From NCBI RefSeq assembly GCF_045037415.1, contig NZ_CP173440.1: a DNA stretch of 64,000 nt; one strand, given 5' to 3'. This stretch comes from Escherichia coli (GTDB lineage: Bacteria > Pseudomonadota > Gammaproteobacteria > Enterobacterales > Enterobacteriaceae). How positions within the stretch are numbered: position 1 is the stretch's first letter; the number at the start of each line of letters is the position of its first letter. Under the pieces are notes generated by a model. The model was not told the origin of the DNA. It did not search any database and worked only from the letters and a program-made list of their open reading frames with translations. A program made the position numbers and the translations under genes. Positions 22,264 through 55,653 of this stretch are shown in pieces.

Positions 22264-22329
22264 TTTGCTACATTAATAACAAATCGTTAATAATACGGTG
22301 TTATGTTAACGACACCAGCCGAGCCATAC

Positions 22330-23815: not shown

Positions 23816-23878
23816 ATATACCTGCCTGATCTGATATTTACTCTCATCCCTACCCTGCCCCCTGCCTGAGCCACCGCT

Positions 23879-24301: not shown

Positions 24302-24329
24302 GTCCTGTACCGATAAAATTGCGTAATGA

Positions 24330-24348
24330 AACGTTATAACATAACATT
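24330..24348. promoter_or_regulatory. Zur-box-like operator upstream of the dksA2-like operon
   Basis: AACGTTATAACATAACATT (reverse complement AATGTTATGTTATAACGTT), about 29 bp upstream of the start codon. Confidence 0.55.
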
Positions 24349-24371
24349 AACTGCCGCTGCAAAATAACCTG

Positions 24372-25571: not shown

Positions 25572-25668
25572 AGCATCCAGCCTTATGCCGCTAAACGTTA
25601 ATGCAATCAAGTTGCAATAATACCGGCTTCCTGCCAAAATTCAAATGACATGACTCGGAGGGGGAAAT

Positions 25669-26121: not shown

Positions 26122-26202
26122 TTTTTTTCTTATTCCGGACGACTGTTAATTAGCGCCAGGCGTGTTCGTGTGCTGCTATCTAAAAATAATGAGGTAAACG
26201 TA

Positions 26203-27585
26203 ATGATTAAACTAACAAACACGCTTGGTATGCAAAAGGAGCTATTAGTTCCGGTTAAAGAGAGCAAAATCGGCATGTATGTATGCGGCGTGACGGTTTA
26301 TGACCTTTGCCATCTTGGGCACGCCAGAACCTTTGTAGCTTTTGATATGATTGTCCGCTATCTGCGTTTTCGCGGATACGATGTGACTTTCGTGCGTAAC
26401 ATTACTGATATAGATGATAAAATTATTCAGCGCGCCCGTGATACGGGAGAGGACTGGCGCAGCCTGACAGAGCGGATGGTGCATGAAATGCACATTGATT
26501 TTGCAAAGTTAGGCATCCTGCCGCCAAACATCGAACCTCGTCCCACAGAGCACATCCCACAAATCATCAGTATGATCGAACGACTTCTGCATCGACAATT
26601 TGCTTACATTGCAGAGAATGGTGACGTCATGTTCTCCACTGCATCGGCAAAAGGCTATGGAAAGCTTTCGGGACAGGATATTACCATGCTTCGTGCCGGG
26701 ACCCGCATCGAAGTGAATGAGTATAAACGCGATCCGCTGGATTTTGTTCTCTGGAAGCGGGCAAAACCCGGCGAGCCCGTCTGGCCATCACCCTGGGGTG
26801 AAGGGAGACCTGGCTGGCATATTGAATGTTCCGCAATGAACTGCCATTACCTTGGTACCCATTTCGACATTCATGGCGGTGGTTCTGACCTGATATTTCC
26901 CCATCATGAAAATGAGATTGCCCAATCCACCTCCGCCAATGATGGCCCTTACGTAAATTACTGGCTTCACACCGGCATGGTGACGGTGAATAAAGAGAAG
27001 ATGTCGAAATCGCTGAATAACTTTTTTACCCTGCGCGATATTCTGAATCGGTTCGATGCCCAGAGTGTGCGCTTCTTCCTGCTAAGCGCACATTATCGTA
27101 AGCCGCTGAATTATAGCGAGGAGAATATTCACCTCGCGCGCGCCTCGCTGACACGGCTCTACACCGCATGCCAGTTCGCTGACGGGTCTCGATCTGAACA
27201 GCACGATGCATGGCGGGCCAGATTCTGTGAGGCAATGGATGATGATTTCAATACACCCCAGGCGCTTGCCATTTTATTTGAACTGACAAGAGAGATTAAC
27301 AGGCTTTGCGGAACGAATGATGATGAAGCCGCAGCACTTGCCACCACGCTGAAAGACCTGGGGAATGTGCTGGGTTTGCTTGAACAATCAGCGGATGCCT
27401 TTTTGAAAAACCGCAGTGATCTTCATCCTGCAGAACTGCAACTTATTGAAAAGTTAATTCACCAACGCAGTGAGGCACGACGTATGGGCAAGTGGGACAA
27501 GGCCGATCGTTTAAGAAATGAATTAGCGGAGCAAGGCATTGATCTTGAAGATGTCGGCGAAAATACCTCATGGCGTATCCGATAA
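26203..27585 (+). CDS. cysS: cysteinyl-tRNA synthetase paralog
   Basis: Full-length class I CysRS similarity (GMYVCG…HLGH, KMSKS). Zinc-ligand positions are conserved ([25 protein letters not shown]). Confidence 0.85.
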
Positions 27586-27620
27586 GTTGTCCCTCTGGAT
27601 GTAAAAAATTTCAATATCAA

Positions 27621-27639
27621 TTGTTATGTTATAACGTAA
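27621..27639. promoter_or_regulatory. Zur-box-like operator
   Basis: TTGTTATGTTATAACGTAA, 17 bp upstream of the flavoprotein start codon. Confidence 0.55.
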
Positions 27640-27655
27640 TGCAAAGGGTAATTTT

Positions 27656-28786
27656 ATGAACCAACCACGCGAAGTCGTTATTGTCGGTGCGGGTCCGGCC
27701 GGGGTGGGTATGGCGGCGCTTCTTCGTCGTAGTGCCATACAGGATATCCTGGTCGTTGACAGTCACGAAGTAGGTGCCTCCTTTATGCGCTGGCCGGAAG
27801 AAACCCGTTTTATTACTCCTTCTTTTTTTTCCAATCCGTTTGGACAACCAGACCTGAACTCTGTGACCCCTGACAGTTCATTGGCGCTTTTCTGCGGTGA
27901 AGAACATCCTGGGGGGAAAACTTATGCCAGTTACCTTAAGGCCGTACTGGATGAGTATCAGATACCCGTCATGGCTCCCGCCAGGATTGCAAAGGTTGCG
28001 TTGCTCAGTTCCGGTAATTTTATACTGATAACAGAAGCAGGAGAGAAGCTGGAAACACGCTCTTTAATATGGGCTACAGGCGAATTCCAGTTCCCAGACC
28101 GGCAGATTTTTCCTGGAGCAGATATTTGTTGCCATTACGGTGATGTGACCAGCTGGAAGGATTTCAGGAAAGGTGAATACATTGTTATAGGCGGCTATGA
28201 AAGCGCGGTGGATGCCGCTGTAAACCTGCTGGAAAATGGCTCATCGGTAAAAATGTTAACCCGCTCAGCCCCTTGGTCAACTAACCACATCAGCGATCCC
28301 AGTCTATCGCTTTCCCCTTATACCCGTGAGCGTTTGAACAGAGTGATGAATCACCGTCTTTTCGAAATTTATGAAGATGCGGATGTCTGTGAAGTAATCA
28401 GAATGCCCGGCCCGGGAAGTTCGTACAAAGTCCATACCACAAACGGACGCGCCTGGGCTACTGACGAGGTGCCTGTGCTTGCTACCGGCTTCCAGTGTGG
28501 CGGAGGAGCAAGGCAACTGGCTGCTTTTTTTGAATGGAATGATGATGGCTATCCGGTCTTAACGGACGAAGACTGCTCAACCCTTTTTCCTGGTTTGTAC
28601 CTTGTCGGCCCTCATGTGCGGCATGCCGGTAATATTTATTGCTTTATCTATAAGTTCCGTCAGCGCTTTCCCGTCGTGGCAGAAAGTATCACGCGTCATC
28701 TGGGCCTGTCCTCTGAAGGAGTACGGGACTGGTGGGTTCTGCCTTCAGAGCCTGACTGCTGTGCCGATGAGGACTGTGCGTGCTGA
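27656..28786 (+). CDS. FAD/NAD(P)-binding flavoprotein (flavin-monooxygenase or thioredoxin-reductase-like) with Cys-rich C-terminus
   Basis: VVIVGAGPAGVG FAD-binding fold, second GG…AVDAA dinucleotide motif, LATGFQ motif, C-terminal CCADEDCAC. Confidence 0.6.
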   Translation: MNQPREVVIVGAGPAGVGMAALLRRSAIQDILVVDSHEVGASFMRWPEETRFITPSFFSNPFGQPDLNSVTPDSSLALFCGEEHPGGKTYASYLKAVLDEYQIPVMAPARIAKVALLSSGNFILITEAGEKLETRSLIWATGEFQFPDRQIFPGADICCHYGDVTSWKDFRKGEYIVIGGYESAVDAAVNLLENGSSVKMLTRSAPWSTNHISDPSLSLSPYTRERLNRVMNHRLFEIYEDADVCEVIRMPGPGSSYKVHTTNGRAWATDEVPVLATGFQCGGGARQLAAFFEWNDDGYPVLTDEDCSTLFPGLYLVGPHVRHAGNIYCFIYKFRQRFPVVAESITRHLGLSSEGVRDWWVLPSEPDCCADEDCAC

Positions 28787-30447
28787 GGTCCGTGTTTATG
28801 CAATCATTCGTTTTAATGGGATTAGAAAGTGCAGGAAAATCTACCCTGTTTAATATCCTGACGGAAAGTGCTGCCAGTGATGAGCGTAATTTCAGGGGAT
28901 CGACCGTTGTATGTCGGGAAGGTCTCATTAATGATGCAGGGATCTGCCTGGTTGATACGCCAGGCATACGTTTTCAGAGCGACAGTGAAACCACAAAACT
29001 CGCCCTTGATGCGCTAAATCAGCATGATGGCATTCTGGTGGTTCTGCGGGCCACGCACGCTCAGCAGGAGTGGCAAACGCTCTGTCACCTCATACCGCCA
29101 CAGGCAAAACACGTTGTTATACTCCTGACCTTTGCTGATAAGATCAGAAAGGGCCTTCTGGAAGTGACTGAATACCTGAGTGAAACATCAGGTGCGCCGG
29201 TACTGGCAGTCAATGCCCGGGAAGCTGGCAGCAATGTTCGCCAGGGAATAGTGCAGTTGCTGTTGCAGGATAAACCTGCACCCTCCGCTGTCTCTTTACC
29301 CCGTCAAAAGATACCGGTAATTAATCTGCTGGCTGAATTTCCTCAACAAACGATATTTGAACATCGTTGGTGTGGAAAAGTTGCTGCAATAGTATGCCTT
29401 TTCCTGCTGTTTGCCGTTCCGGTATGGGGGGCATGGCTGCTGTCAGATTTTATTCAGCCTGTCATTGACAGTGCGGTTATTCAGCCGCTTAAGAATATAA
29501 CGACGAGCTGGCCCGACGTTCTGAAGACACTATTTGTCGGCAATTACGGTCTTTTTAGTCTGGGACTTTATTCGTTTGTATGGGCATTTCCTGTGGTGGT
29601 ACTGATAGGGTTGTCTCTTTCGCTGACTGACGACAGTGGACTTAAGGAAAGAATTACAGCGACGCTGGATCCCTGGTTGAGAAAACTCGGCCTCAGCGGT
29701 CAGGACCTTATTCCTGTATTAAGCGGTTTCGGCTGTAATGTCGTGGCGGTTTTTCAGAGCCGTTCGTGTTCGCGATGCACCCGGCATGCTTGTATAAGTA
29801 TGATTAGCTTTGGGTCCGCTTGCAGCTATCAGACGGGGGCGACGCTTTCTCTTTTTAATGCCGCCCATCAACCATGGCTCTTTATCCCCTATCTCAGTCT
29901 GCTGTTTTTCACAGGCGCAATACATACGCGCCTCTGGAACGGGTCGTTGAAGCCTGGCCAAAACCAGCGTCTGACAGAGATCACCTGGCTACAATGGCCA
30001 CGCTGGCGAAATGTGACATGGATGCTGAAAAATATCCTCCGTCAGTTCATTACGCAAGCCATGCCGTTATTCCTGATTATCTGCATTGTTGCGGGGATGC
30101 TTGATTACGCAGGGATCACTCGCTGGCTGAGTGAAACGACGGCACCTTTACTTCATCTTTTTAAACTGCCAGCAGAACTGATGCCCGGGATCATTTTTTC
30201 ACTGCTAAGGAAAGATGGTTTGATGGTGCTCAATCAGGATGGCGGCAGCTTAATACAGTCTCTCAGCACATCTCAGTTACTGCTACTTGTCTGGCTCGCC
30301 TCTACGTTGATGGCCTGCCTTGTCACGGTATTTACCATCGCCCGGGAAATAAACTGGCGGTTTGCAGCAGCAGTGGCGGGAAAACAGGTATTAAGTTCTC
30401 TGGTGGTGGCTCTGGTGATATCCCAGTTATTTATTCATGAGGCATAA
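28780..30447 (+). CDS. FeoB-family transporter with a divergent G-domain
   Basis: G1 GLESAGKSTLFN and G3 DTPG; membrane domain with LSGFGCNVVAV gate-like motif; shorter than canonical FeoB. Confidence 0.6.
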   Translation: MLRSVFMQSFVLMGLESAGKSTLFNILTESAASDERNFRGSTVVCREGLINDAGICLVDTPGIRFQSDSETTKLALDALNQHDGILVVLRATHAQQEWQTLCHLIPPQAKHVVILLTFADKIRKGLLEVTEYLSETSGAPVLAVNAREAGSNVRQGIVQLLLQDKPAPSAVSLPRQKIPVINLLAEFPQQTIFEHRWCGKVAAIVCLFLLFAVPVWGAWLLSDFIQPVIDSAVIQPLKNITTSWPDVLKTLFVGNYGLFSLGLYSFVWAFPVVVLIGLSLSLTDDSGLKERITATLDPWLRKLGLSGQDLIPVLSGFGCNVVAVFQSRSCSRCTRHACISMISFGSACSYQTGATLSLFNAAHQPWLFIPYLSLLFFTGAIHTRLWNGSLKPGQNQRLTEITWLQWPRWRNVTWMLKNILRQFITQAMPLFLIICIVAGMLDYAGITRWLSETTAPLLHLFKLPAELMPGIIFSLLRKDGLMVLNQDGGSLIQSLSTSQLLLLVWLASTLMACLVTVFTIAREINWRFAAAVAGKQVLSSLVVALVISQLFIHEA

Positions 30448-30449
30448 GT

Positions 30450-30656
30450 ATGATCCCCAAGACTTACCAGCAATGGTACCGGTGCATCACAGAAGAATGT
30501 GGAATTCCCTTGACGCAGGCATTTATTGCATCCCGTCTGGCAGTCCTTGAGTCCCAAGATCATCAGGAAACCAGACGTTTTGTCTCGCTATATGGGCAAC
30601 AACATCTGAATAGTGTTGTACAGTGGTTCAAAAAAGCTGGGGAAGAATTGTTGTAA
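30450..30656 (+). CDS. small hypothetical protein, translationally coupled to the FeoB-like gene
   Basis: 68-aa ORF starting 3 nt after the FeoB-like stop. Confidence 0.35.
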   Translation: MIPKTYQQWYRCITEECGIPLTQAFIASRLAVLESQDHQETRRFVSLYGQQHLNSVVQWFKKAGEELL

Positions 30657-30681
30657 ATCTGCCCCCTTTTCGCTTTCATAC

Positions 30682-30710
30682 GAAGGCACCCGACAAATGC
30701 GGGTGCCTTC
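30682..30710. terminator. perfect 11-bp stem hairpin between convergent genes
   Basis: GAAGGCACCCG-acaaatg-CGGGTGCCTTC. A near-identical hairpin recurs at 61555-61585. Confidence 0.4.
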
Positions 30711-30713
30711 GAT

Positions 30714-31937
30714 TCATTCTTCGAACCAGGGCTCAACAGGATCGGAATAATGCCGCCACTTTTGAGGCCCTTCTGCCATTTCTGCATCCGTTAACAGGGC
30801 GGAATCCAGTCTGTTGCGCAGTTCTGATTCATTCATATCCATTCCAATAAAAACGAGTTCCTGACGGGCATCACCAATGCCATCTATCCAGTTAGACATG
30901 ATGAACTTCAGTGACTCAGCATCCTCTGGCCAACGTCCTTTCGGCACACTAGCCCACCACATGCCCCCCAGCCCCTGGCGCGCAATGCCACCTGCCTGCG
31001 ACCATGAACCTGCGAATTCCGGACGGCTGGCCAGCCAGAAGTAACCTTTTGATCTGACGACTCCATCCAGCTCATTTTCCATCACCTGCCAGAAACGGGT
31101 CGGATGAAAAGGCCGGCGGGCGCGAAAGACAAAGCTGGTGATCCCATATTCTTCTGTCTCCGGCGTATGTTCGCCCCGGAGTTCTTTAAGCCAGCCGGGT
31201 GCCTGAGCGGCCTGCTCGAAATCAAACAGCCCGGTATTAAGTATGTTGCCCAGCGGAACCTGTCCAAACTGTGAAACAACGATTCTGGCCCGTGGATTAA
31301 GCGAACGTAAAATCGCCATCAGTTTTTCTTTTTGCGCTTCACTGATAAGGTCAACTTTATTAAGGACCAGCACATCACAGAATTCAATCTGATCGATCAG
31401 CAAGTCAACAACGCTCCTTTCATCACCTTCACCTAACGATTCTCCGCGTGACTGAATGCTGTCTTCCGAACCGTAGTCTTTCAGAAAATTGTACGCATCC
31501 ACCACAGTGACCATGGTGTCAAGGCGGGCCACCGTCGAAAGGCTTTCACCGTCATCGCCCGCAAAGGTAAATGTTTCAGCAACAGGCAGAGGCTCAGATA
31601 TACCGGTGGACTCAATGACAAGCTGATCAAAACGCCCTTCTTTTGCCAGACGATTAACTTCGAGAAGAAGATCTTCGCGCAATGTGCAGCAAATGCAACC
31701 GTTGCTCATTTCTACCAGTTTTTCATCAGTCCGGGAGAGTTCTGCACCACCTTCCCTCACAAGGGCAGCATCAATATTCACCTCAGACATATCATTAACA
31801 ATGACAGCAACACGACGGCCTTCCCGGTTGTTCAGAATATGGTTAAGCAGTGTCGTTTTCCCTGCTCCCAAAAATCCCGAAAGTACGGTAACCGGCAGGC
31901 GTTTATCGCCATGAAAATTTGCACTGACTTCGGACAT
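30714..31937 (-). CDS. COG0523 GTPase with canonical CxCC motif
   Basis: P-loop [11 protein letters not shown] and GCICCTL metal motif, followed by a CobW_C-like C-terminal domain. Confidence 0.8.
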
Positions 31938-31973
31938 TACCTTACATCTCCTCAGATATTCGTTGTGTTCGGA

Positions 31974-32381
31974 TTAACCAGGATCGTTGAGCACGGTTAG
32001 CTCATCGCCTTTAATGGCGTTGTAAAAACAACTCCGCCGACCTGTGTGGCAGGCTCCACCTTTTTGATCCACTAGCAGTAGCACCGCATCTCCGTCACAA
32101 TCCAGACGGATATCATGTACTTGCTGAACGCAGCCGGAGGTCTCACCTTTTCGCCAAAGGCATGATCGGGATCGCGACCAGTAACAGGCTCTGCCAGTCA
32201 ATAAGGTTTCATCAAGAGCCTGTTGATTCATCCAGGCAAGCATCAACACCTCTCCAGTGTCATATTGCTGTGCAATCGCAGCGATCAAACCATGAGAATC
32301 CCAGGGTATTGACGGCAGGATATCCTCAAGCTGAAACACTGCTCCTGCATGGGCTTTTTCCAGTAACAGAAACATTGGCAC
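31974..32381 (-). CDS. hisI: phosphoribosyl-AMP cyclohydrolase paralog (HisI-like)
   Basis: 135 aa with HisI-like core (…WSRSRS…[28 protein letters not shown]); Cys/His ligand positions appear retained. Confidence 0.65.
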
Positions 32382-32393
32382 CCCACCTTTTTG

Positions 32394-32411
32394 ATGTTAC
32401 GTTATAACATA
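32394..32411. promoter_or_regulatory. Zur-box-like operator
   Basis: ATGTTACGTTATAACATA, 13 bp upstream of the hisI-like start, in the divergent region with a Fur-family regulator gene. Confidence 0.55.
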
Positions 32412-32519
32412 TCAAACATAATTGCCAGTTATCACGATTTCACAGGCACTGTACTTCTTGGGTAACATCTGACCGGAAAAAGAAACAAAGCAAATGTGAT
32501 AGAGGCAGCAGGAGGCAAG

Positions 32520-33020
32520 ATGAATAACAAACTACATTCTGAATTGATTAAGAAAGCTATGTTCCCGGATCTAGGCTGTTCAGAATTTAGGGAACTGACT
32601 GCCCGTAAGGCGATGCGAATTACTCCGATGCGGATGATGGTGTATCACTTCATCAGGTGTGCTGAAGACAAAGGTATCAGTGCATACCAAATCCTTGACC
32701 AGTTAAAATCATATAACCCAAATGCAAAACCAACTACTGTTTATCGTACTCTGGATTATCTACAACAGGCTGGAGTCATTGTAAAAATAGAAAGCTGTAG
32801 CAAGTTTGTAAAAAAGAATAGCTTTCCCCATGAAGGATTAACACTTTTTATGATTTGTTCAAACTGCGGTACAATCATTCAGCATACAGACAGCAAAATA
32901 CAATATTACGTTGAGGATAAATCACATGAATATGGGTATATTATGCAAAGAAAGGACATAGAAATCAGTATAATTTGTCCCGGTTGTCAGGCTAATGAAA
33001 AAATGGCGCAATCTGGGTGA
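32520..33020 (+). CDS. second Fur-family regulator (low-GC, divergent from the hisI-COG0523 operon)
   Basis: Winged-helix region and CSNCG…CPGC structural-zinc-type motifs. Start set at MNNKLH. Confidence 0.6.
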   Translation: MNNKLHSELIKKAMFPDLGCSEFRELTARKAMRITPMRMMVYHFIRCAEDKGISAYQILDQLKSYNPNAKPTTVYRTLDYLQQAGVIVKIESCSKFVKKNSFPHEGLTLFMICSNCGTIIQHTDSKIQYYVEDKSHEYGYIMQRKDIEISIICPGCQANEKMAQSG

Positions 33021-33395
33021 ATTGTGCTCAATAAGCATACGATTAGTAACTTCCCATATTATATGTGAAACAGAAAAAATATTATTACGGTCGATAAAAT
33101 TAAGAATAATATAAATTAGCACTCCCACAAATATTGATTGAAATAATGCTGAATTATTTTCAATAAATAATACAAATAATGCAATTTGAAAAATACCTAC
33201 CTATCATGTTTAGCAAAGCATGACTATTTAGGATCATAAAAACAAAAAAGGAAATTTATAATTTATTTATTTTAACCGTTTTATTTGCACTCCATGTAAA
33301 TGCATGCTTAAATTCCCATGCATTTCCTAAACAATATTACTAATGACCTTTATATACAATAATACAGAAATCCTAAATAACTGATCCTAATACCG

Positions 33396-34390
33396 CTACA
33401 GTTTAGCCAACCCATGTTTTCCACCGGGGAATGGGCTGACGGTATTCATAAAGTGACGAACCTTTTTCAACAGTTTCCACATTGAGTGGCACTGATGATT
33501 TCGGGTTATTGTCTCGTGAAGCGCCTGCCACAACCGTTCGACATGATTGACCCGCGGCGAGTAAACCGGCTGATAAATTACCCTGAACTTCGGGTTTGCT
33601 TTCAGCCAACGCAACGTTTCACGGCTTTTGTGGATGATGTGGTTATCGACAATGAGCGTAATCGTTTTTGCCCGCCGGTATGTCGCCTTCAGATGTTTTA
33701 AGTCTGATAAATAAGGAAGAACCTTTACTGTTTCCACTAACGTAGCTGGCTTTTCCTGTATCGCTGTGCAGCGCACCGGCAAGATAGTACTTTTCATTCT
33801 GGCCCAGCGTGACTACGCGCTTTTGCTGCCCGCGCAGATGCCAGTCAGCACCAATTTTGGGATTGAGGTGAATATCCACTTCATCTTCGTAAAATACGGG
33901 GTTTTCCGCACTGCATTCGCCAGTGCTTCATGGATAGCGACCATTTTTTCTTCTTTGTGTGGGGCACGGATACGCAGTGTCGGCGCTGCTCTCCGCCATA
34001 CCAGTCCGGCAGCAGGTAACCATCGCCGGATGGTTGAAGCATGTAGCGGACAACCGATAACATCACGGACTTTTATCGCCAGCAGTTCGGTGCTCCAGCG
34101 GGAACGCTGATAACTGAAATCGCCGGGAGAATGCTTAACAAGCTCAAGCAGCAATGCGCAAATATGTTCGAACGGCCAGCGCCTCCCACGTCCTGACGGC
34201 AATGATTTCAGGCCTTCAGTACCAGACAGCGTGAACCAGTTAATCTAGCGACCAATCGATGAGCGGGCACAGCAGAGCGTTCTGGCAACATGACTGACGG
34301 TGTCACCATGATGCAGCATCAGCATGGCGGTGAGCCGCCGGGCGAGGTTTTTGTCCTTTGTTTTATTGATATTTTTATCCATCAGGCGTC
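33396..34390 (-). pseudogene. IS630-family transposase, broken into three or more frames
   Basis: ORFs 33396..33797 (DDE C-terminus, …YQPVYSPRVNHVERLW…) and 33813..34202 (N-terminal part), plus an HTH piece near 34250-34390. Confidence 0.55.
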
Positions 34391-34478
34391 ACTGGCTCTT
34401 GCCCGCATATCAGCTGCATTATAGTACGGCATCAGGTAATTCCTTGATGGTTGTTATCCGCGATATCAGACCTGACGT

Positions 34479-35460
34479 CTATTTATTGGGCTGAATTTCC
34501 CGGATGCTGCTTAAATCACGGTGACGTGAACTCCAGACGCCGCTTCCGACCGCGGCACCGGTGGATTTTCTGAAGCGCAGGCCGCACTCACTGACCCACT
34601 GGGAACTGGTTTCCCGCAGCCTGACTAAACGGGGTTGGTAGCATTCAGTAACGGTCCCGGTGTGAGTCATCTTCTTCTGCTTTTTCGTTTCATGGACATG
34701 GGTGACCTTATCTGACGAACCATTCACCGCCCGGTCACGGTATTCAGTAGGGATCTCCATAGACAGGCGCAGAGGCAGGGCCCTGCCCTGCCCCGGGACG
34801 GGTAACAGACTGTCCGCCGTGGCTTTCAGCCAGCCATACAGCTTATGACCATTACCCGGAATGCCATCAAGCGTCAGTTTACGCGCGGTGAAGCTCCCGT
34901 CCTGCCTTCGGACCTTCCGCAGGAAGGTACCCAGAGGCTTACCAGACTCAACCGGCTCCGCCACAATCTAGTCATACCCTGGAAACTGATCGAGCATCAG
35001 GTCGATATACTCCCAGTCGAGGACGACAATGACGTGGCCATGAATGTCAGGGCCGTCATTCCACTGTATGGCAATGACATAAGGGAACAGCATGTCGTCG
35101 TGAACTCAGAGATACTGAACTAGGCTCTAGCTGGCCAGTTCACAACTGCCGGCCGGAAATGGCTTCAGCCAGTCACGCCAGAGGGAAGGTACCGGCTCAC
35201 CGGACCGTTCTCCGGCGGCCAGCTCCAGCGCCCGACGGAAGGCCTTCACACGGGCCCAGGTTTCCGCATTCATTTCTTTGCCTTCCCATCAGCACGCGCT
35301 AGGATCAGCAGGCTGAACGCGTCACGAATAACAACTCACTAGATACCATAGCCACCTGACTGCACAGGTAAATCAATGAATTCTGGCGGCCCGGCCAGTA
35401 CCTTTGTCAGATCCAGCGGTAGATGTATGACATTGGTCATTCACCGGCTAGGTTCACAAA
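34479..35460 (-). pseudogene. degraded gene of unknown family with several in-frame TAG stops
   Basis: Consecutive minus-strand coding-like segments are interrupted by stops, several in CTAG context. Confidence 0.3.
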
Positions 35461-35611
35461 GGTGATCTGGTGTGGGAAAGCGGAGCGTTTTACCAGAAAA
35501 TCAAATATAGTTGACAGGCAGGATATTACATATGGTCAACTCATGTGATCTGTATCTTATTATACGAAAAATGGAACTCATCTTAATATGTTGATATAAA
35601 ATCACTTTATA

Positions 35612-36175
35612 TTGAAAACCTCATATTATGGCACACTGCCTGCGGTAGATAGTGCTAACGAAAAGCAGCCACTGATGATTGGCTCCCATATTGACACCGT
35701 TGTAAACGCCGGCGCTTTCGATGGTTGTTACGGTGTCCTGTCCGGCCTGGCTGTCGTCAGGGCTTTCAGAAAAGCCGGGATCAAACCTTCCCGCCCGATT
35801 ACTGTCGGCGCATTCACAAACGAAGAGGGTATCCGTTATCAACCCGATATGATGGGATCGCTCGTCTATGCAGGGGGGATCTCGCTGAAGAAAATCCTGG
35901 ACACTGTCGGCACTGATGGCACACGTCTGGGTGATGAGCTGCAGCGTATTGGCTATGCGGGAAACCTGGAGCCCGGCTCGATCGTCCCTCATGAATACAT
36001 TGAACTGCACATCGAACAGGGACCTGTTCTTGAAGCCGAAGGGATCCAGATCGGTGCTGTCGAAAATCTTCAGGGAATTTCCTGGCAGGAAATCACCATC
36101 AAAGGCACGGCAAACCATGCAGGCACCACGCCGACACGGCTACCCGTTCTTACGATCCGGCAGTCTAGGAAATGC
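35612..36175 (+). pseudogene. fragment of an M20-family amidohydrolase (allantoate/N-carbamoyl-amino-acid amidohydrolase-like)
   Basis: Internal region only (…GSHIDTVVNAGAFDGCYGV…GTANHAGTTP…); N- and C-termini are missing. Confidence 0.5.
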
Positions 36176-36533
36176 TTGAAAAACGGATGCGTGTTATCTG
36201 TAATTCTGTTTGCGCAATGCACGAAGCAGAATGTGAATTCATTTACACACATGAGTTTTCACCTACAGTCGATCATCCGCGGGAAACTGCATATGCAATT
36301 GACGCAGCGGTTCGCGTATTCGGCGAAAAAAATGTGGATTCCACGGTGACGTGTTCATACTCAAATCTCCTGCAATATGGGAGATTTGAGTATGGTTGTA
36401 CCTTGTGAGCGAACAGCGGGAATTCGCAAATGTTTCACATCTGATCAAGGCATTACTTAAAGGATGCTGTGGTAGCCAACGGGGAGCAGGTCAAAGCAAT
36501 TACAAATTGGTTTGAATTGCAACATCATGCAAA

Positions 36534-36553
36534 TAAATGTTATGTTATCACAT
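36534..36553. promoter_or_regulatory. Zur-box-like operator (one mismatch to the window consensus)
   Basis: AAATGTTATGTTATCACATT, about 25 bp upstream of the probable ATPase start. Confidence 0.45.
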
Positions 36554-36577
36554 TACTTAAGTGGCATATACAGTGAC

Positions 36578-37387
36578 ATGAACAACAATCTTCCTTATCC
36601 AATACCTGTGCTTGATGTTAAAAGCGTCAGCATTTCTACGGGCCATTCTGCTCTGGTTAGCGATGTCAGCTTTCGGCTCCAACAAGGCGAGCGGGTCTGT
36701 ATTATCGGCTCATCAGGGTCAGGTAAGTCTCTGACGGCAAAAGCCATTATAGGTACATTGTCTGCCGGGCTGTTATTACAAGGAAGCATTCGTATAAACG
36801 GTGCGGATGTCGTTGGCCTTCATCCCACCCGGCGCCCTCAGCATGCGCTGGTATCCGCCATCTTTCAGGACTCTTCCACCGCGCTGAACCCGCTGATGCC
36901 GGTGGGGCGACAGCTTGCTCTGGCGTTGAAAACAGGTGATAACGCGATGCTGGGCTCTTTGCTGGATGCGCTACAGCTCAGCGATATCCCTCAATTGCTC
37001 TCCCGCTACCCGGCAGAGCTTTCCGGTGGGCAGCGTCAGCGGATTTGCATCGCGCTGGCGTTGCTGGGGAATAATCGCCTGCTGGTTGCTGATGAACCGA
37101 CGACGGCACTGGATGTGATTAGCCAGCAGCAGGTTTTGCAGATATTAGTTCAGGGTTCCACGATGAGAGCTCCGCCTGCGTTGCTCTTCATCACACATGA
37201 TATTGCCGTTGCCACACAGTTGTGCCAGCGAGGTATCGTGGTGGAAAAAGGCAGGATTGTGGAGTCAGGCACAATGGACCAGCTCCTGAACGAGCCGGAG
37301 CATCCTTACACCCGCAAATTGGTACGGGCCGCGCGAGCCGCTGAACAGACGTTGTTAACACACACCCGTGAGGTGCTCGCCGGATGA
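36578..37387 (+). CDS. ABC transporter ATP-binding protein (Nik/Dpp/Opp-type, D-like)
   Basis: Walker A GSSGSGKS, signature LSGGQRQR, Walker B LLVADEPT. Confidence 0.8.
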   Translation: MNNNLPYPIPVLDVKSVSISTGHSALVSDVSFRLQQGERVCIIGSSGSGKSLTAKAIIGTLSAGLLLQGSIRINGADVVGLHPTRRPQHALVSAIFQDSSTALNPLMPVGRQLALALKTGDNAMLGSLLDALQLSDIPQLLSRYPAELSGGQRQRICIALALLGNNRLLVADEPTTALDVISQQQVLQILVQGSTMRAPPALLFITHDIAVATQLCQRGIVVEKGRIVESGTMDQLLNEPEHPYTRKLVRAARAAEQTLLTHTREVLAG

Positions 37388-38217
37388 GTATTCCCCTGCA
37401 GATGGCATCCGACTCCTTCATTCAGGTCGACAGGATTTCCCGCTACCGGAGTCACCCCGGACTCCCTTGGCAGAAGACCCTGCCAGTGAATGCCATTCTT
37501 AAAGATTTTTCGCTCACACTGCGTCAGCATGAGCGTGTTGGCCTGTTAGGATGTTCGGGCTGTGGAAAATCGACGTTACTGAAAGCTATCTTGGCCCTCG
37601 ACCCGGTAGATGACGGTGAGGTGTATTGTGATGGAAAGGTGGTCAGGCCCGGCTCTGCCCGAATATTGCGCTGGTATCGCCGCAGGGTTCAGTACCTTCC
37701 TCAGGAACCCGCCAGTACGTTGCCGCCGTCAATGCGTGTCAGAGAGATTCTCAACGAGCCGCTAAGACATTTAGGCTGCAACCGTGATGCGTCACCTAAT
37801 CTTGCCGCCGCGCTTGAACAGGTCGAACTCAGCGCAAAAGTTCTCGATCAGCGTGCAGGCTCGCTTTCAGGGGGGCAGGCTCAGCGCGTTGCGCTGGCAA
37901 GAGCGCTGATCATACAGCCCGATTTTTTGCTGGCCGATGAGCCGGTCAGCGGGCTGGATCTTCCCCTGCGTGAGCAAATCAAATTGCTACTTTTGCGTAT
38001 AGCAGAAGAAAACCGCATGGGGCTGCTGATTGTCTCTCATGACATTTCTATGCTGGCAGGGTTGTGCGACAGAACGCTGGTCATGGTGGCTGGAAAAATC
38101 ATTGAAGATCGCCCGACGTTTGAAATGTTGCATTTACCTCATCATCCGCATACGCGTCAGCTTCTGGACGCGGTACCGGCTCTTGTAACTCATGCCCCGT
38201 CGCTGGCACGTGGCTGA
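37384..38217 (+). CDS. ABC transporter ATP-binding protein (F-like)
   Basis: GCSGCGKST, LSGGQAQR, LLADEP; ATGA overlap with the upstream gene. Confidence 0.8.
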   Translation: MSIPLQMASDSFIQVDRISRYRSHPGLPWQKTLPVNAILKDFSLTLRQHERVGLLGCSGCGKSTLLKAILALDPVDDGEVYCDGKVVRPGSARILRWYRRRVQYLPQEPASTLPPSMRVREILNEPLRHLGCNRDASPNLAAALEQVELSAKVLDQRAGSLSGGQAQRVALARALIIQPDFLLADEPVSGLDLPLREQIKLLLLRIAEENRMGLLIVSHDISMLAGLCDRTLVMVAGKIIEDRPTFEMLHLPHHPHTRQLLDAVPALVTHAPSLARG

Positions 38218-38243
38218 ATACACTTTTAACGAATAATCTCATT

Positions 38244-39488
38244 ATGACTGAATTGATTTCAGGGAAGAAAGCGAACACCTCCCCTTCATTGCTGCTTGTC
38301 AGCCAGTTTATTTTTAATACCGGTTTTTATGCGGTAGTGCCTTTTCTCGCTATTTTTCTGCGCGATGACATGCTGTTGTCCGGTGCCGCGATTGGCCTGG
38401 TGCTCGGTCTCAGGACCTTCTCGCAGCAGGGTATGTTTCTGGTTGGAGGGGCACTGACTGACAGGTTTGGCGGACGTGCCATCATTCTGTGCGGCTGCGT
38501 GGTCCGAATCAGTGGCTACCTGCTGCTCGCCATCAGCGCCTCGTTATGGGGCGTTATTCTGGGAGCCTGCCTGACAGGGATTGGCGGTGCGCTCTTCTCG
38601 CCTGCAATCGAGTCGCTGATGGCTCAGGCGGGGACGCAAAGTGAAAGGGAAGGCAAGCGCAGCCGTTCAGAATGGTTCGCGTTGTTCTCTGTTTGTGGTG
38701 AGCTGGGTTCAGTCATCGGTCCTTTGCTGGGAGCATTGCTGACAGGGTACAGCTTTCAGAGTGTGGCCCTTGGCGGGGCAGGCGTCTTCTTGTTTGCGCT
38801 GATTATGCTCTATTTCATGCTACCGACAGGCACCAGCCATCATGGCACGCTTAAAATTTCCCCTTGGTGGACGGCATTTCACCAGCGCCGCTTTGTTGCC
38901 TTTATCGTTGCTTACAGCGCGTATTTATTCAGCTATAACCAGCTCTATCTGGCGTTACCCGTTGAACTACGCCGCTCCGGGGGAAGTGAGGCCGAGCTCG
39001 GCCCGCTGTTTATGCTGGCCTCAGTCATGATCATTTTCCTGCAATTGCCTCTGGCACGGTTTGCCCGAAAACGCGGCGCATCACAGATTTTGCCTGTGGG
39101 ATTTTTGCTGCTGGCACTGTCATTCTTTAGCGTCGCTCTGTTCGCCGGTACCACAGCGCCAGACACTCTGTGGCGGCTGCTTCCCGCGGTTTCACTAGTC
39201 ACGCTGCTGACGCTTGGCCAGATGCTTATTGTGCCTGTGGGCATGGACATGATCCCTGTTTTTGCCCGGGATAAAAATCTTGGGGCGCACTACGGAGCAC
39301 TCTCCTCCATGGGCGGCGCCACCGTGCTGGCCGGCAATTTTGCCCTCGGCGGGCTGCTGGATCGCGCACTCATCCCTTCTTCGCAGGCTTTTGTGCCATG
39401 GCTACTTATGGGCTGCATTCCGTTATGCAGCGCGGTTGCCATGCTGTTTATTTTACGATCGTTTAAAACGACCTCTGGAAATCAATAA
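38244..39488 (+). CDS. MFS transporter embedded in the ABC operon
   Basis: About 12 predicted TM helices; MFS-like signature GGALTDRFGGR. Confidence 0.65.
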   Translation: MTELISGKKANTSPSLLLVSQFIFNTGFYAVVPFLAIFLRDDMLLSGAAIGLVLGLRTFSQQGMFLVGGALTDRFGGRAIILCGCVVRISGYLLLAISASLWGVILGACLTGIGGALFSPAIESLMAQAGTQSEREGKRSRSEWFALFSVCGELGSVIGPLLGALLTGYSFQSVALGGAGVFLFALIMLYFMLPTGTSHHGTLKISPWWTAFHQRRFVAFIVAYSAYLFSYNQLYLALPVELRRSGGSEAELGPLFMLASVMIIFLQLPLARFARKRGASQILPVGFLLLALSFFSVALFAGTTAPDTLWRLLPAVSLVTLLTLGQMLIVPVGMDMIPVFARDKNLGAHYGALSSMGGATVLAGNFALGGLLDRALIPSSQAFVPWLLMGCIPLCSAVAMLFILRSFKTTSGNQ

Positions 39489-39498
39489 GGACAGATAA

Positions 39499-41025
39499 AT
39501 GAATACGGGTAAATCATTATGGCCTGTTTATGGGCTCTTGTCAGCCACCTTATTACTGACTGGCTGCTTTAATGAACCGCAGGACGAATCGGTCAGCGCC
39601 AGCGAGGGCAGAATTAAAGTGGCGCACCTTCTTCCACCGCGTTCCGGCCTGACGCCGCTCAGTGATGATGCATTTAAATTATCGCGCTGGAGCACGGCTG
39701 AAACCCTGGTCGTACTCAACAGCGCCAGTGATGCACAGCCTGCGCTGGCAACCAGCTGGGAGCAAATCAATGACACAACCTGGCGTTTTGAATTGCGCCC
39801 GAACGTCAAGTTTCATGACAATACCGATCTAACCGCGCAGTCGGTGGTTAACGCGCTGAGCGTTGCCGCTAGCGCCAAACCAAAGCCCCGTATTCTGGAT
39901 GGCATAACGCTCACAGCCAAAGTAGACGGCGATAATGCCGTACTGATCACGACTGAAAAACGCGATCCTCTTCTGCCTCAGCGTCTTTCCAGCCCTCAGC
40001 TGGCCATTTTGTCGCTGAATGCTTACAAAGAAAATGGCGTGGTGAACCCAGTTAATGCAGGAACCGGGCCATTCATTCTGCGCAGCGTGAATGGCACCAG
40101 CAGTGCCGCGCTCGATCGCTTTGATGGCTACTGGGGCGAGAAGGCGAAAGCTAGCGGTATTGACGCAAGCTTTGTTCCGGACGGGGCCGCGCGCGCAGCC
40201 GCATTACGTACTGGCACGGCGGATATCATTGAGGCAATTCCTGTGTCTCAGGCCCCGCTTCTGGATCAATCACTGGTTCATGAAGTCCCGATGCCGAGAA
40301 CCAATACGCTTTATCTCAATACGGCGCAGGGCGTGATGAAAGATCCAGCTATGCGAGCCGCAGTCCGTGACGTGATTAATCGTCAGCAGATTGTTGATAA
40401 TGTCTATGAGAAACGTGCCGACGTCGCGCAGGGGCTTCTGGGGCCAGCCTTGCCATGGGCCGCACCACTGCGCAAACCGGTGACCAACCCCGTTGCAGCG
40501 GGAAAACCAGACGGGGCCACAATCACTCTGGCAACGTTCAGCGATCGTGCGGAATTGCCTGAAGTCGCGGTCTATCTTGCACAGCAGCTCATTGCCGCCG
40601 GGTTTACCGTGAAACAAGTGGTCCGCGAGTATTCGCAGATTGAAGCTGATGCGCTGGCCGGAAAGTTTGATGCCTTTATTCTGTCGCGTGCAACCGTGCT
40701 GGATTCCGGTGACCCGGTTGCCTACATGTACAGCGATTTCGCCTGCGAAGGGTCGTTCAATATATCCCAGCTGTGCCGCCCGGAAATTGATGCAGCGCTG
40801 AAAAAAGCCCGTGAAACGCCAGCGGGTGAAACCCGACGTCAGGCCATTATGGACGCTGAAAACATGATCCTTGCCAGTGATGCTGCGATCCCAATACTAC
40901 ATGAGCGCGTCATTCAGGGAGAAAGTGCGGTAGTGAAAAATGCGCTCCGTGACCCTCGCGAGCGCACGCTCATCGACAGCCAGACCCAATTAGTCGCTGG
41001 CGAACATACTACTGCTGCGCAGTAA
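39499..41025 (+). CDS. family-5 (NikA/OppA/CntA-like) substrate-binding lipoprotein
   Basis: Lipoprotein signal (LLLTGC); size and composition of family-5 solute-binding proteins. Confidence 0.7.
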   Translation: MNTGKSLWPVYGLLSATLLLTGCFNEPQDESVSASEGRIKVAHLLPPRSGLTPLSDDAFKLSRWSTAETLVVLNSASDAQPALATSWEQINDTTWRFELRPNVKFHDNTDLTAQSVVNALSVAASAKPKPRILDGITLTAKVDGDNAVLITTEKRDPLLPQRLSSPQLAILSLNAYKENGVVNPVNAGTGPFILRSVNGTSSAALDRFDGYWGEKAKASGIDASFVPDGAARAAALRTGTADIIEAIPVSQAPLLDQSLVHEVPMPRTNTLYLNTAQGVMKDPAMRAAVRDVINRQQIVDNVYEKRADVAQGLLGPALPWAAPLRKPVTNPVAAGKPDGATITLATFSDRAELPEVAVYLAQQLIAAGFTVKQVVREYSQIEADALAGKFDAFILSRATVLDSGDPVAYMYSDFACEGSFNISQLCRPEIDAALKKARETPAGETRRQAIMDAENMILASDAAIPILHERVIQGESAVVKNALRDPRERTLIDSQTQLVAGEHTTAAQ

Positions 41026-41043
41026 AACAGGGGTTATTGATCA

Positions 41044-42819
41044 ATGAGCGAATCGCTGTACTGCCGGACCTGCGCCAGGATCCATCGGGCAGGTAACCTG
41101 CCAAAAGGCTTAGTGGCAACGTTGCTGTCGCGGATAATTACGCTGACCGGTATTGTCGTGCTGATCGGGATGCTGCCTTGGGTATCGGGCCAGGATCCCG
41201 CCATGGCGCTGCTGAGAGCGCGTTCTGCCGAACAGGAAGCAACCCCGGAAGCATTAGCAGCGATTCGCCAGTCGCTGGGGTTCGATCAGGGCCCTGTGCA
41301 ACTCCTGCTGCACTGGCTCAGCGGCCTCTTGCAGGGGGATGCAGGTAACTCTTGGATATCAGGGCGCCCGGTGCTGCCTGACATGATCCAGGCAGCCCAG
41401 GTGTCACTGACGCTGATGCTGATGTCCGCCGTGGTGGCACTGCTGCTGGCGGCGATGATTTGCCTGCCGACATTCCGACGAGGCCTGCAGGGGCGGTCGT
41501 TTCGTTCGACGGGCTTTTTCGCGTCAGTATTCACCGCATTACCTGAATTTCTTCTGGCGTCATTCTTACTGGTCGTTGGGGCCGTCTGGCTGGAGTGGTT
41601 TCCTCCTTACGGCTGGAACGGCCTGCACTATGCGGTGCTGCCCGCGCTGGCAATGGGGATCCCGGCAGGTGGCTATCTGGGGCGGATATTCTCGGATGCT
41701 TTAGCGGCAACCTTTAGTGAAAACTGGATAATCACCTGGACCGTCTCCGGGATATCGCGTTGGCACATTACCTGCGCGGTACTTAAGCGAACGCTCTCCA
41801 CCGTTATGCCGTTAATTGGCCTGGTTTTGGTGTCATTGACGGGCAGTGCAGTGGCCGTGGAAAAGGTCTTCGCCATTCCGGGGCTCGGCAGGGCAACGCT
41901 CGGTGCCGTAGTTGCACAGGATCTTCCGGCGCTGCAAATGGGCGTGCTCTTCCTGCTCATCATTGCATTTATGTTCGGAATGCTGTGTGCGGGGATCAGA
42001 TACCTCATTCTGGGGCGGGCGTTACGCACGTCCTCTCTGCCGGTCACCAATGAACCTGACGGAAAAAGCGGGAAATTGTCGCTGTTGCTTCCGTTCGCCT
42101 GTGGCGTTGCGTTGGTCGTGCTTCTGCTTATTGGTCTGCCCCGTGATCCTTACTCGTCTGAGTTTATGCGACTGGCTCATCCTTCCTTTTCGCTGCCCTT
42201 TGGGGCCGATGCCATGGGGCGTGATTTGCTGGCCAGAGTGGCCTACGGCACAGTGCATACCTGCATGCTGGCGCTGATGGTGTCGCTTATTTGTCTGCTA
42301 CTGGGGCTGGTTATTGGTCTTTTCCCCAGGGTATTTGTGGGACCGACAGAGATGGCAAATGCGCTGCCTCCGGTGATTGCGGGCTTACTGGTGGTTTCCA
42401 TCAGTGGCCCCGGCAGTTTAGGTGCGGCCATTGCGATTGCAGCAGTAGGCTGGGCGCCTCTTGCCACACATACCGCGGCGCTGGCGACAGAAATTCGCGC
42501 CAGACCTTATATCAACATGCTTCCTGTTCTGGGGGTTGGCTGGCTACGTCAGAATCTGTTTTACATTTTTCCGGCACTAATTGGCCCTCTCTTTCGTCAT
42601 GCTATGCTGCGCTTACCGGGGATCGCCCTAGCTTTGGCTTCACTGGGTTTTCTCGGGCTGGGCGCATCACCGCCGGAGCCGGAATGGGGAAGGGTACTTG
42701 CGGAAGGAATGCCTTATCTGGAGCGCGCCTATTGGGTCGTTCTGGCACCTGCAGTCGCCCTTGCCGTTTTGTCGGTGATGGGCGTGAGTCTGGCCGGTCT
42801 GACGGGTCAAAAAAAGTAA
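41044..42819 (+). CDS. fused ABC permease (NikB/NikC-like double transmembrane domain)
   Basis: 591 aa with two permease-like halves. Confidence 0.65.
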   Translation: MSESLYCRTCARIHRAGNLPKGLVATLLSRIITLTGIVVLIGMLPWVSGQDPAMALLRARSAEQEATPEALAAIRQSLGFDQGPVQLLLHWLSGLLQGDAGNSWISGRPVLPDMIQAAQVSLTLMLMSAVVALLLAAMICLPTFRRGLQGRSFRSTGFFASVFTALPEFLLASFLLVVGAVWLEWFPPYGWNGLHYAVLPALAMGIPAGGYLGRIFSDALAATFSENWIITWTVSGISRWHITCAVLKRTLSTVMPLIGLVLVSLTGSAVAVEKVFAIPGLGRATLGAVVAQDLPALQMGVLFLLIIAFMFGMLCAGIRYLILGRALRTSSLPVTNEPDGKSGKLSLLLPFACGVALVVLLLIGLPRDPYSSEFMRLAHPSFSLPFGADAMGRDLLARVAYGTVHTCMLALMVSLICLLLGLVIGLFPRVFVGPTEMANALPPVIAGLLVVSISGPGSLGAAIAIAAVGWAPLATHTAALATEIRARPYINMLPVLGVGWLRQNLFYIFPALIGPLFRHAMLRLPGIALALASLGFLGLGASPPEPEWGRVLAEGMPYLERAYWVVLAPAVALAVLSVMGVSLAGLTGQKK

Positions 42820-55651: not shown

Positions 55652-55653
55652 GA

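Follow-up and report, generated by a model that had tools for sequence, protein, structure and literature searches.

The segment from 33,396 to 36,400 is, with a probability of about 0.88, a recombination and insertion scar in a mosaic pLVPK-type plasmid, whose in-frame stop codons come from ordinary decay and involve no recoding. The window, that is, the whole 64,000-nucleotide stretch analysed here (from contig NZ_CP173440.1), is a pLVPK-type Klebsiella pneumoniae virulence plasmid sequence. The segment is found at 100% identity on about 500 virulence plasmids of K. pneumoniae, pLVPK itself (NC_005249) among them. The preliminary description had called the segment a junkyard of pseudogenes, and this was confirmed. 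Alignment to intact homologues revealed at least six dead gene or sequence remnants, and every remnant and every lesion could be assigned. The phenomenon is ordinary and already known, and two of the pseudogenes are already flagged by RefSeq. A literature search found nothing specific on this region of pLVPK. The features are as follows.

33373–34391, minus strand: remnant of an IS630/ISSpu2-family insertion sequence (Pfam, alignment to intact copies, PGAP)
between 33701 and 33702, minus strand: 2-bp deletion (TG), the second IS630 frameshift, where the original frame is regained (alignment columns 837–838)
between 33917 and 33918, minus strand: loss of 1 bp from a run of A (AAA>AA), the first IS630 frameshift (alignment column 620)
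34245–34247, minus strand: IS630 transposase interrupted by an in-frame TAG, TGG (Trp60)>TAG by G>A at 34246; TGG in both intact homologues
34479–35273, minus strand: kfrA-adjacent pseudogene for a plasmid-backbone protein of ~268 aa (alignment to the Citrobacter freundii homologue)
34968–34970, minus strand: in-frame TAG at residue 102 of the kfrA-adjacent gene, beside a one-codon deletion, TGG (Trp)>TAG; TGG in C. freundii
35106–35108, minus strand: in-frame TGA at residue 56 of the same gene (frame translation), probably from CGA (Arg)
35120–35123, minus strand: CTAG that is not a stop, from a synonymous Leu CTG>CTA inside the same gene; CTGG in C. freundii
35127–35129, minus strand: in-frame TAG at Gln49 of the same gene, CAG>TAG (GCCAGA to GCTAGA); CAG in C. 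freundii
35273–35314, minus strand: 3' end of a kfrA-like gene, of which the final 14 codons are left and the remainder is deleted (tblastn, 11/14 identical)
35458–35597, plus strand: residue of the intergenic DNA that preceded an ancestral catabolic operon, 76% identical to positions 339–478 of the intact locus L007
35629–36141, plus strand: internal fragment (codons ~71–246) of a Zn-dependent M20 hydrolase gene, with 92% and 89% nucleotide identity to the intact genes of loci L007 and L009
36138–36343, plus strand: fragment from the C-terminal part of an M20 aminoacylase gene, 95% identical to L007 5315–5520
36166–36168, plus strand: aminoacylase fragment interrupted by an in-frame TAG, CAG (Gln)>TAG by C>T at 36166; CAG in L007 and L009
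36339–36419, no strand assigned: 80-bp piece of an integrase gene, 89–94% identical in several plasmids

The first remnant had been recognized as a broken IS630-family transposase, and this identification holds. Its frame-corrected translation matches PF13358 (DDE_3) at 5.4e-19. Among the N-terminal helix-turn-helix domains, HTH_23 passes the Pfam threshold, and HTH_32 and HTH_29 fall below it. This domain composition is that of the IS630 family (ISSpu2 group), and the nucleotide identity to intact copies on Pantoea stewartii and K. pneumoniae plasmids is 93.5% and 91.1%. The right end is intact (...CAGTTATTTAG), with a CTA target half-site. The target of the IS630 family is TA/CTAG, and both the end sequence and the C-TA half-site are consistent with it. 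Unrelated sequence stands in place of the left ~145 bp, which comprised the inverted repeat and the first 13 codons. The structure of an intact element, two terminal inverted repeats flanked by duplicated TA, is thus reduced to the right end starting at 33373. Neither is the transposase frame unbroken, as it contains the TAG and the 1-bp and 2-bp deletions. Because the left end is lost and the gene carries a nonsense codon and two frameshifting deletions, this copy cannot transpose. It has 47 window-specific substitutions (13, 12, and 22 at the three codon positions) of an ordinary spectrum, and 22 private amino-acid changes, compared with 2 and 6 in the two intact copies. PGAP annotates it as a pseudogene, "frameshifted; internal stop".

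The second remnant was described as a degraded gene of unknown family, which is accurate, as there is no Pfam match. In its intact relatives, this gene lies downstream of kfrA. The pseudogene retains 264 codons in one frame, free of frameshifts but interrupted by three nonsense codons and shortened by deletions of 3 bp (34970/34971) and 9 bp (34777/34778), both in frame. It shows 72.7% nucleotide and 62% amino-acid identity to C. freundii WP_233609723. A search of 5.8 billion proteins yielded 130 homologues, and no intact relative by which changes could be polarized exceeds 68% identity. Eight private replacements fall at columns invariant in 23 relatives, one of them within the GCCELAS motif; intact members have 0–5 (median 1). 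The Gln49 column is Gln in all 23 core family members aligned, and His or Asn in three distant members. Residue 56 is Arg in several members, and residue 102 is Trp or Arg. PGAP annotates only the 161-aa tail ORF of the gene (34479–34964). The combination of three nonsense codons with no frameshift and with both deletions in frame is mildly unusual under random decay. A fold search with the family returned weak vasohibin-like and thiol-protease-like matches (best E = 2.6e-3), which are a lead only.

Upstream of this gene, only the end of kfrA survives. The C. freundii kfrA homologue has the KfrA_N domain (3.6e-20), which is absent from the window, where the last 14 codons alone remain. This tail carries a synonymous CTG>CTA that makes a CTAG at 35299 (CCTGG in C. 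freundii, CCTAG in the window). A frameshift between 35273 and 35340 was considered and rejected; kfrA naturally overlaps the gene after it by ATGA, and this is the change of frame seen there.

The remnants on the plus strand belong to one catabolic operon. The region of L007 that corresponds to 35458–35597 is located upstream of a PAS_6/HTH_22 regulator gene, and the M20 hydrolase and aminoacylase genes are neighbours in three loci (L006, L007, and L009). In L007 and L009, both belong to an intact operon of five or six genes. The "M20 fragment" of the preliminary description therefore needs correction: M20 remnants do occupy 35629–36343, but they are pieces of two adjacent genes. The alternative of a single M20 gene with a frameshift was rejected. 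The two pieces are joined by a ~1.36-kb deletion with a possible microhomology of 1–2 bp, and large deletions are the dominant lesions in this area. The hydrolase piece has no start codon, internal stop, or indel, is gap-free against L007 and L009, and carries 14 of its 18 window-specific changes at third codon positions. PGAP annotates it as a pseudogene, "incomplete; missing N- and C-terminus". The aminoacylase piece keeps ~68 codons including one TAG, and is unannotated in RefSeq. A protein search with it returned only three matches, and it was identified through the neighbour of the hydrolase homologue. No complete ORF contains both the catalytic and the dimerisation domains of an M20 enzyme; PF01546 matches part of the domain only. 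The 80-bp piece that follows matches the 5' end and the upstream region of a plasmid site-specific integrase gene, and contains a perfect 15-bp hairpin.

Five nonsense codons are observed in the segment: four TAGs and one TGA. All four TAGs lie within CTAG, as had been noticed for several of the disruptions. Wherever a homologue could be used, the stop traces back to one G:C>A:T transition at CCAG or CTGG. In the IS630 transposase, CTGG became CTAG outside any CCWGG site. In the aminoacylase, GTCCAGGAA became GTCTAGGAA at a Dcm CCAGG site, and a K. pneumoniae paralogue also has Gln at this position. All five nonsense codons can be explained by single G:C>A:T transitions, with the ancestral codon seen in a homologue for four of them. 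The preliminary description had contrasted these stops with frameshifts and had named a random mix of lesion types, on alignment to intact homologues, as the outcome that goes against its pattern. The TAGs are real. However, the IS630 copy also has two small deletions and a 5' truncation, one of the stops is TGA, and the alignment essentially gave such a mix.

These observations are consistent with a simple history. At least four unrelated acquisitions would have left remnants: an IS630/ISSpu2 element, an IncF-type backbone piece (kfrA with its downstream neighbour), a catabolic operon of chromosomal type (coding for a regulator, RidA, a PLP enzyme, the Zn hydrolase, and the M20 aminoacylase), and the start of an integrase gene. 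Most of the damage probably came from large deletions and truncations, followed by neutral drift of the remnants. Each TAG stop arose from a CAG or TGG codon by one G:C>A:T transition. In these GC3-rich frames such transitions give TAG in ~60% of cases, with C as the preceding base in ~45%, and CCAG>CTAG is therefore the commonest single route to a stop. Living enterobacterial genes strongly avoid CTAG, as an in-frame TAG is impossible there, the codon CTA is rare, and CTAG is removed by very-short-patch repair. Dead DNA rich in CCAG/CTGG regains CTAG, hence the apparent clustering.

CTAG is enriched locally. The whole window has 49 CTAGs against ~249 expected from base composition, and its long ORFs are the most depleted (0.48/kb, against 1.25/kb in the other non-ORF DNA of the window). 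The 3.0-kb segment has eight CTAGs, seven of them in a 1.3-kb core, whose density of 5.4/kb exceeds even the mononucleotide expectation of 3.9/kb. This speaks against plain decay, although the counts are small. CTAG is rare in enterics, and VSP repair and codon bias have been offered as explanations (PMC5337935, which discusses the under-representation in Enterobacteriaceae reported by Bhagwat & McClelland 1992). The window shows the same depletion, but the segment is a local reversal in dead DNA, where CTAG is regained by drift, in the direction opposite to VSP repair.

The best surviving alternative is a context-specific process that hits the second C of CCAG beyond the Dcm site CCWGG and leaves CTAG scars in the segment. 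Another m5C methyltransferase, Dcm of relaxed specificity, or a cytosine deaminase could be responsible. Such a process is unlikely, and slightly less likely still is the reading that this plasmid undergoes C>T more often at the second C of CCAG, also off CCWGG, through extra or relaxed cytosine-5 methylation or a context-specific deaminase. If it were true, amber stops in CTAG context would be a recognizable mutational signature of pseudogene birth in Klebsiella. Besides the context of the four TAGs, several counts point towards it. In the kfrA tail and the adjacent gene, all five CTAGs that can be placed on C. freundii face CCAG or CTGG (the alignment at 35339 is weak), and the CTAGs in IS630 and the aminoacylase derive from CTGG and CCAG; the CTAG at 35448 has no homologue. 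CCWGG-derived sites account for only about half of the CTAGs. The ratio CTAG/(CCAG+CTGG) is 0.205 in the segment and 0.053 in the rest of the window, a ~4-fold difference (Fisher p = 0.0035).

The conversion rate itself argues against such a process. In the alignment of the kfrA-adjacent gene with C. freundii, 3–4 of 19 CCAG/CTGG sites are now CTAG, and 72 of all 503 G/C sites (14%) have undergone G/C>A/T change. The CCAG/CTGG conversion rate equals the background transition rate, and a CCAG hotspot was rejected. The ordinary spectrum of the 47 IS630 substitutions speaks in the same direction. The mutational bias raised in the preliminary description is thus present in the ordinary sense only, as G:C>A:T transitions along the commonest routes to a stop, and no additional CCAG-specific hotspot is needed.

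The contexts of the stops leave somewhat more room. In the null model, 75 transitions in these frames can create a nonsense codon; 61% of them give TAG, and 46% of the TAG-making ones follow C. Elsewhere on the plasmid, only three of six TAG stops are in CTAG, a count that goes against such a process. Two of the three are CTAGG; the others are GTAG, TTAG, and ATAG, and there is one TGA. Pooled plasmid-wide, seven of eight transition-type TAG stops follow C, and four of these seven lie off CCWGG. The four flagged TAGs were chosen because of the pattern, and the p-values that include them look too significant: P ~0.04 for 4/4 TAGs in CTAG, and for 7/7 in the pooled set p = 0.0004–0.003 under a uniform null of 0.32–0.43 per site, or p = 0.03–0.065 if Dcm sites are modelled as a 10-fold hotspot. 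CCAG>CTAG may thus be modestly preferred. As a further sample of internal stops, pO157 (NC_002128.1) was inspected, but its old annotation has no pseudogene notes.

Dcm methylation may have contributed to one of the stops. All 14 K. pneumoniae strains in one study carry dcm and methylate CCWGG (10.1101/2020.12.04.409839). In lacI, CCAGG amber hotspots were ~10-fold overrepresented (PMC12606429, which reviews the amber hotspots of Dcm 5-methylcytosine deamination described by Coulondre, Miller et al. 1978). The stop at 36166 is of the same kind, C>T at the second C of CCAGG (L007 and L009) changing CAG to TAG, and two CTAGG TAGs are found elsewhere. The rate at 36166 was probably raised because it is a Dcm CCAGG, the classical amber hotspot of 5-methylcytosine deamination. 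The non-stop change at 35299 also corresponds to the second C of an ancestral CCWGG. In contrast to the lacI hotspots, three of the four TAGs in the segment (34246, 35129, and 34969) come from CCAG/CTGG outside CCWGG. No excess rate was detectable in the comparison of 3–4/19 with 72/503, which pools CCWGG and non-CCWGG sites and has low power. An explanation by Dcm alone was rejected: four of the eight CTAGs are CTAGG/CCTAG, which is the chance level, and the partner products CTTGG/CCAAG are absent from the segment.

Stop-codon suppression, the other possibility raised in the preliminary description, is not supported. That the kfrA-adjacent gene is still expressed at full length by readthrough or suppression is very improbable. 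Such expression would account for the preserved frame, which runs through 264 codons without a frameshift and in which both indels are multiples of three. The likeness to programmed readthrough is superficial, however, and goes no further than in-frame stops in a frame that is open apart from them. Two kinds of stop, two TAGs and one TGA, break this frame, where recoding would use one type of stop, reassigned or read through. As a terminator TAG is ordinary here and ends 8 of the 51 long ORFs of the window, and no tRNA gene, suppressor or other, was found in the window with ARAGORN. Nor are the host genes otherwise intact under purifying selection: IS630 and the M20 genes are truncated or frameshifted, and the kfrA-adjacent gene carries its eight replacements at otherwise invariant columns, while kfrA and the promoter upstream of it are gone. 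Among the 5.8 billion proteins, the only form on record close to the pseudogene is the 161-aa tail ORF.

That the stops are sequencing or assembly errors of a single record has a negligible probability and is already refuted: the ~3 kb are identical base for base (100%) across about 500 plasmid assemblies produced independently in many laboratories and on many platforms, the stops are therefore genuine and not read errors, the sole private base of the window in the segment (G>A at 35963) creates no stop, and no point in favour of errors was found.

The reading as a decayed recombination and insertion scar has little significance beyond annotation. There, it has three consequences: the 161-aa WP_011154565 represents the end of a dead 268-aa gene, the M20 pieces remain from a catabolic operon of six genes, and the M20 aminoacylase fragment at 36138–36343 is missing from the annotation. 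The segment is also a worked example of how amber stops in CTAG context cluster in decaying enterobacterial DNA without recoding, and it may help against over-reading similar patterns elsewhere. Mosaic virulence plasmids of the pLVPK/pK2044 type are likewise full of IS fragments and partial genes, and there is no essential difference here; what is added is where each fragment came from, together with two remnants missed by annotation. On NZ_CP083611.1, a 255-kb fusion-plasmid record that is mostly but not wholly pLVPK-derived, PGAP annotates at least 40 pseudogene features.

The description of 33396-36400 as a pseudogene region with TAG stops in CTAG context is largely correct. The features in this region are listed below, with matches to L007, a Logan contig that has an intact M20 operon homologue.

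33373-34391, minus strand, IS630/ISSpu2-family element with the Pfam DDE_3 and HTH domains
34479-35273, minus strand, homologue of a ~268-aa hypothetical protein encoded 3' of a kfrA-like gene in IncF-type plasmids
35273-35314, 3'-terminal 14 codons of kfrA, with an ATGA overlap into the next gene that intact plasmids share
35458-35597, remnant of the upstream intergenic region of the M20 operon (L007 match 76%)
35629-36141, codons ~71-246 of the M20 hydrolase (L007 match 92%)
36138-36343, ~68 codons of the M20 aminoacylase (L007 match 95%)
36339-36419, 80 bp matching the 5' end and upstream sequence of a plasmid site-specific integrase gene (89-94% identity to other enterobacterial plasmids)

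The IS630-family transposase is broken, as first described. The intact copies from Pantoea stewartii and a K. pneumoniae plasmid are 93.5% and 91.1% identical to it. Their alignment showed that the right end is intact, while the left ~145 bp, including the inverted repeat and 13 codons, is lost. The same alignment revealed TGG>TAG at 34246 and two frameshifting deletions, 1 bp in an A run (33917/33918) and 2 bp (33701/33702). The 47 private substitutions (32 transitions and 15 transversions) show an ordinary spectrum. They are distributed over the three codon positions as 13/12/22. At the protein level this copy has 22 private changes, versus 2 and 6 for the intact ones, so it has been under neutral drift for some time.

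The degraded gene of unknown family is the kfrA-adjacent gene. The ~268-aa family to which it belongs lacks a Pfam domain; 130 members are detectable, all of them in Enterobacterales. pO157 also has the pair of kfrA-like and ~268-aa genes. At the DNA level, a plasmid of C. freundii is closest (72.7%), and no intact relative over 68% identical was found in the protein database, where the gene is represented by a 161-aa tail ORF alone. One frame is kept over 264 codons, interrupted by two TAGs, which replace Gln49 and Trp102, and by one TGA at residue 56; there are also two in-frame deletions, of 3 bp and 9 bp. At columns invariant in 23 relatives, there are 8 private replacements, against 0-5 (median 1) in intact members. 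A frameshift at the boundary with kfrA was considered and rejected, as the ATGA overlap is also present in intact plasmids. Cys44, His80 and Asp91 are invariant in the family alignment. When an AlphaFold model of the N-terminal ~155 residues was searched with Foldseek, vasohibin and other folds resembling thiol proteases matched weakly (best E=2.6e-3). These proteins may represent an uncharacterised type of cysteine hydrolase carried by IncF-type backbones, pO157 among them.

The intact operon in L007 encodes a PAS_6/HTH_22 regulator, RidA, a PLP enzyme, a Zn-dependent M20 hydrolase and an M20 aminoacylase; in Enterobacter hormaechei, a Na/Ala symporter follows. M20 remnants are present, as described, but the presumed single amidohydrolase fragment consists of pieces of two genes fused through a ~1.36-kb deletion. 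The hydrolase piece is free of internal lesions, and third codon positions account for 14 of its 18 private changes, so its death is recent relative to its divergence. The aminoacylase piece carries CAG>TAG at 36166 (GTCCAGGAA to GTCTAGGAA). The integrase piece contains a perfect hairpin, CATACTCAAATCTCC...GGAGATTTGAGTATG. Directly downstream, at 36512-42819, lies an intact operon that encodes two ABC ATPases, an MFS transporter, a substrate-binding protein and a fused permease; in intact relatives it is unlinked to the M20 operon.

The feature is ordinary and in part already annotated. In RefSeq (PGAP), the IS630 copy is marked as "frameshifted; internal stop" and the fragment of the hydrolase as "incomplete"; the aminoacylase fragment is left unannotated, and for the kfrA-adjacent gene only the 161-aa ORF is given. 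All four TAG stops are in CTAG context, as described; the claim that several disruptions are TAG stops rather than frameshifts holds only in part. After alignment to intact homologues, the lesions are a mix of types, the result that the preliminary description had named as counting against its reading.

In total, the region has 5 nonsense codons (4 TAG and 1 TGA), 2 small deletions that shift the frame, both in the IS630 copy, and 2 that keep it, both in the kfrA-adjacent gene. To these come no fewer than 5 large truncations or deletions: one at the left end of IS630, one in kfrA and three in the M20 operon.

Around 500 large virulence plasmids of K. pneumoniae, including pLVPK (NC_005249), match the 3.2-kb stretch around these features at 100% identity, so the window belongs to a pLVPK-type plasmid. 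Cross-assembly identity serves here as a substitute for read-level support. The stops are real and predate the spread of these plasmids. Compared with the other plasmids checked, the only window-private base of 32-45 kb falling inside the region is G>A at 35963, which changes Asp to Asn in the dead hydrolase fragment and is not a stop. At 51275, the window lacks ~6.5 kb that is present in an E. coli fusion-plasmid record (L012, 1281-7838) and holds an iroN-like fragment, peg-344, rmpC and rmpD; the virulence plasmid varies structurally at this point.

The local enrichment of CTAG is real. The whole window is strongly depleted of CTAG (49 observed versus ~249 expected from base composition). 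CTAG density rises from 0.48/kb in long ORFs and 1.25/kb in other non-ORF DNA to 2.7/kb for the region and 5.4/kb for its 1.3-kb core. The ratio CTAG/(CCAG+CTGG) is 0.205 in the region versus 0.053 elsewhere (Fisher p=0.0035). That CTAG is rare in enterics, and that codon bias and very-short-patch repair are held responsible, is established (PMC5337935). All stop-forming CTAGs with a homologue arose from CCAG or CTGG by a single G:C>A:T transition, and so did two non-stop CTAGs (synonymous CTG>CTA).

A special mutation rate is not needed for the CTAG-context stops. In the alignment with C. freundii, the window has CTAG at 3-4 of the 19 CCAG/CTGG sites, against 72/503 (14%) for the same kind of transition over all G/C sites. 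When all 75 stop-creating transitions in four frames were enumerated as a null model, 61% gave TAG and C preceded 46% of these. The probability of 4 of 4 in CTAG is ≈0.04, for a pattern noticed post hoc. Mosaic assembly and deletions probably inactivated the genes first; ordinary G:C>A:T drift at CCAG/CTGG, which are very abundant, then restored CTAG in dead DNA freed from the need to avoid it.

Other PGAP "internal stop" pseudogenes on NZ_CP083611.1, a RefSeq record with the same plasmid, provided an independent sample.

15582-15585 (window), minus strand, GGC TAG GTT, in CTAG, IS3-family transposase fragment 15219-15614
53216-53219 (window), minus strand, AGC TAG TTG, in CTAG, IS3-family transposase fragment 53108-53374
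CGC TAG GCA, in CTAG, umuC-like fragment
GCG TAG, outside CTAG, IS5 family, Leu>stop
GGT TAG ACC, outside CTAG, hisI fragment, Glu>stop, transversion
GAA TAG, outside CTAG, IS5 family, Trp>stop
GAC TGA, IS21 istA, Trp>stop

Here, 3 of 6 TAGs are in CTAG. Among the pooled transition-type TAGs, C precedes 7 of 8. For 7 of 7 after C, p is 0.0004-0.003 under a uniform null and 0.03-0.065 with a 10-fold Dcm hotspot. A slight preference for CCAG>CTAG may remain, resting mostly on lesions selected post hoc. The hisI fragment belongs to a second, decayed copy of the pair of hisI and GTPase genes elsewhere on the plasmid (L014 4563-5137; NZ_CP083611.1 162650-163224).

Dcm is present in K. pneumoniae (10.1101/2020.12.04.409839), and CCAGG sites in lacI are roughly 10-fold amber hotspots (PMC12606429). 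The stop at 36166 lies at such a CCAGG site, a textbook case, and 5-methylcytosine deamination probably aided at least one site. Dcm alone does not explain the pattern: of the 8 CTAGs, 4 are CTAGG or CCTAG, a chance level, and the partner products CTTGG and CCAAG are absent.

Stop-codon suppression, also raised in the preliminary description, is neither supported nor needed: there are two kinds of stop, TAG is a normal terminator (8 of 51 long ORFs), no tRNA gene lies within the window, and the host genes are damaged, three of the four being truncated fragments or frameshifted and the fourth, the kfrA-adjacent gene, being without its former promoter and upstream gene and altered at invariant residues.

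The region adjoins the right edge of a long run, at ~15800-33020, of paralogues of zinc-dependent housekeeping enzymes and their regulators (by PGAP names hemB, dihydroorotase, M14 peptidase, thrS-like fragments, carbonic anhydrase, folE2, dksA, a CobW-family GTPase, two Fur-family regulators, cysS, zigA and hisI). The run resembles a Zur-type zinc-starvation island on the virulence plasmid. At 54690-56221, genes named by PGAP as a DEAD/DEAH-box helicase and Cas6e (type I-E) lie between IS remnants and appear to be what is left of a CRISPR-Cas system carried by the plasmid.
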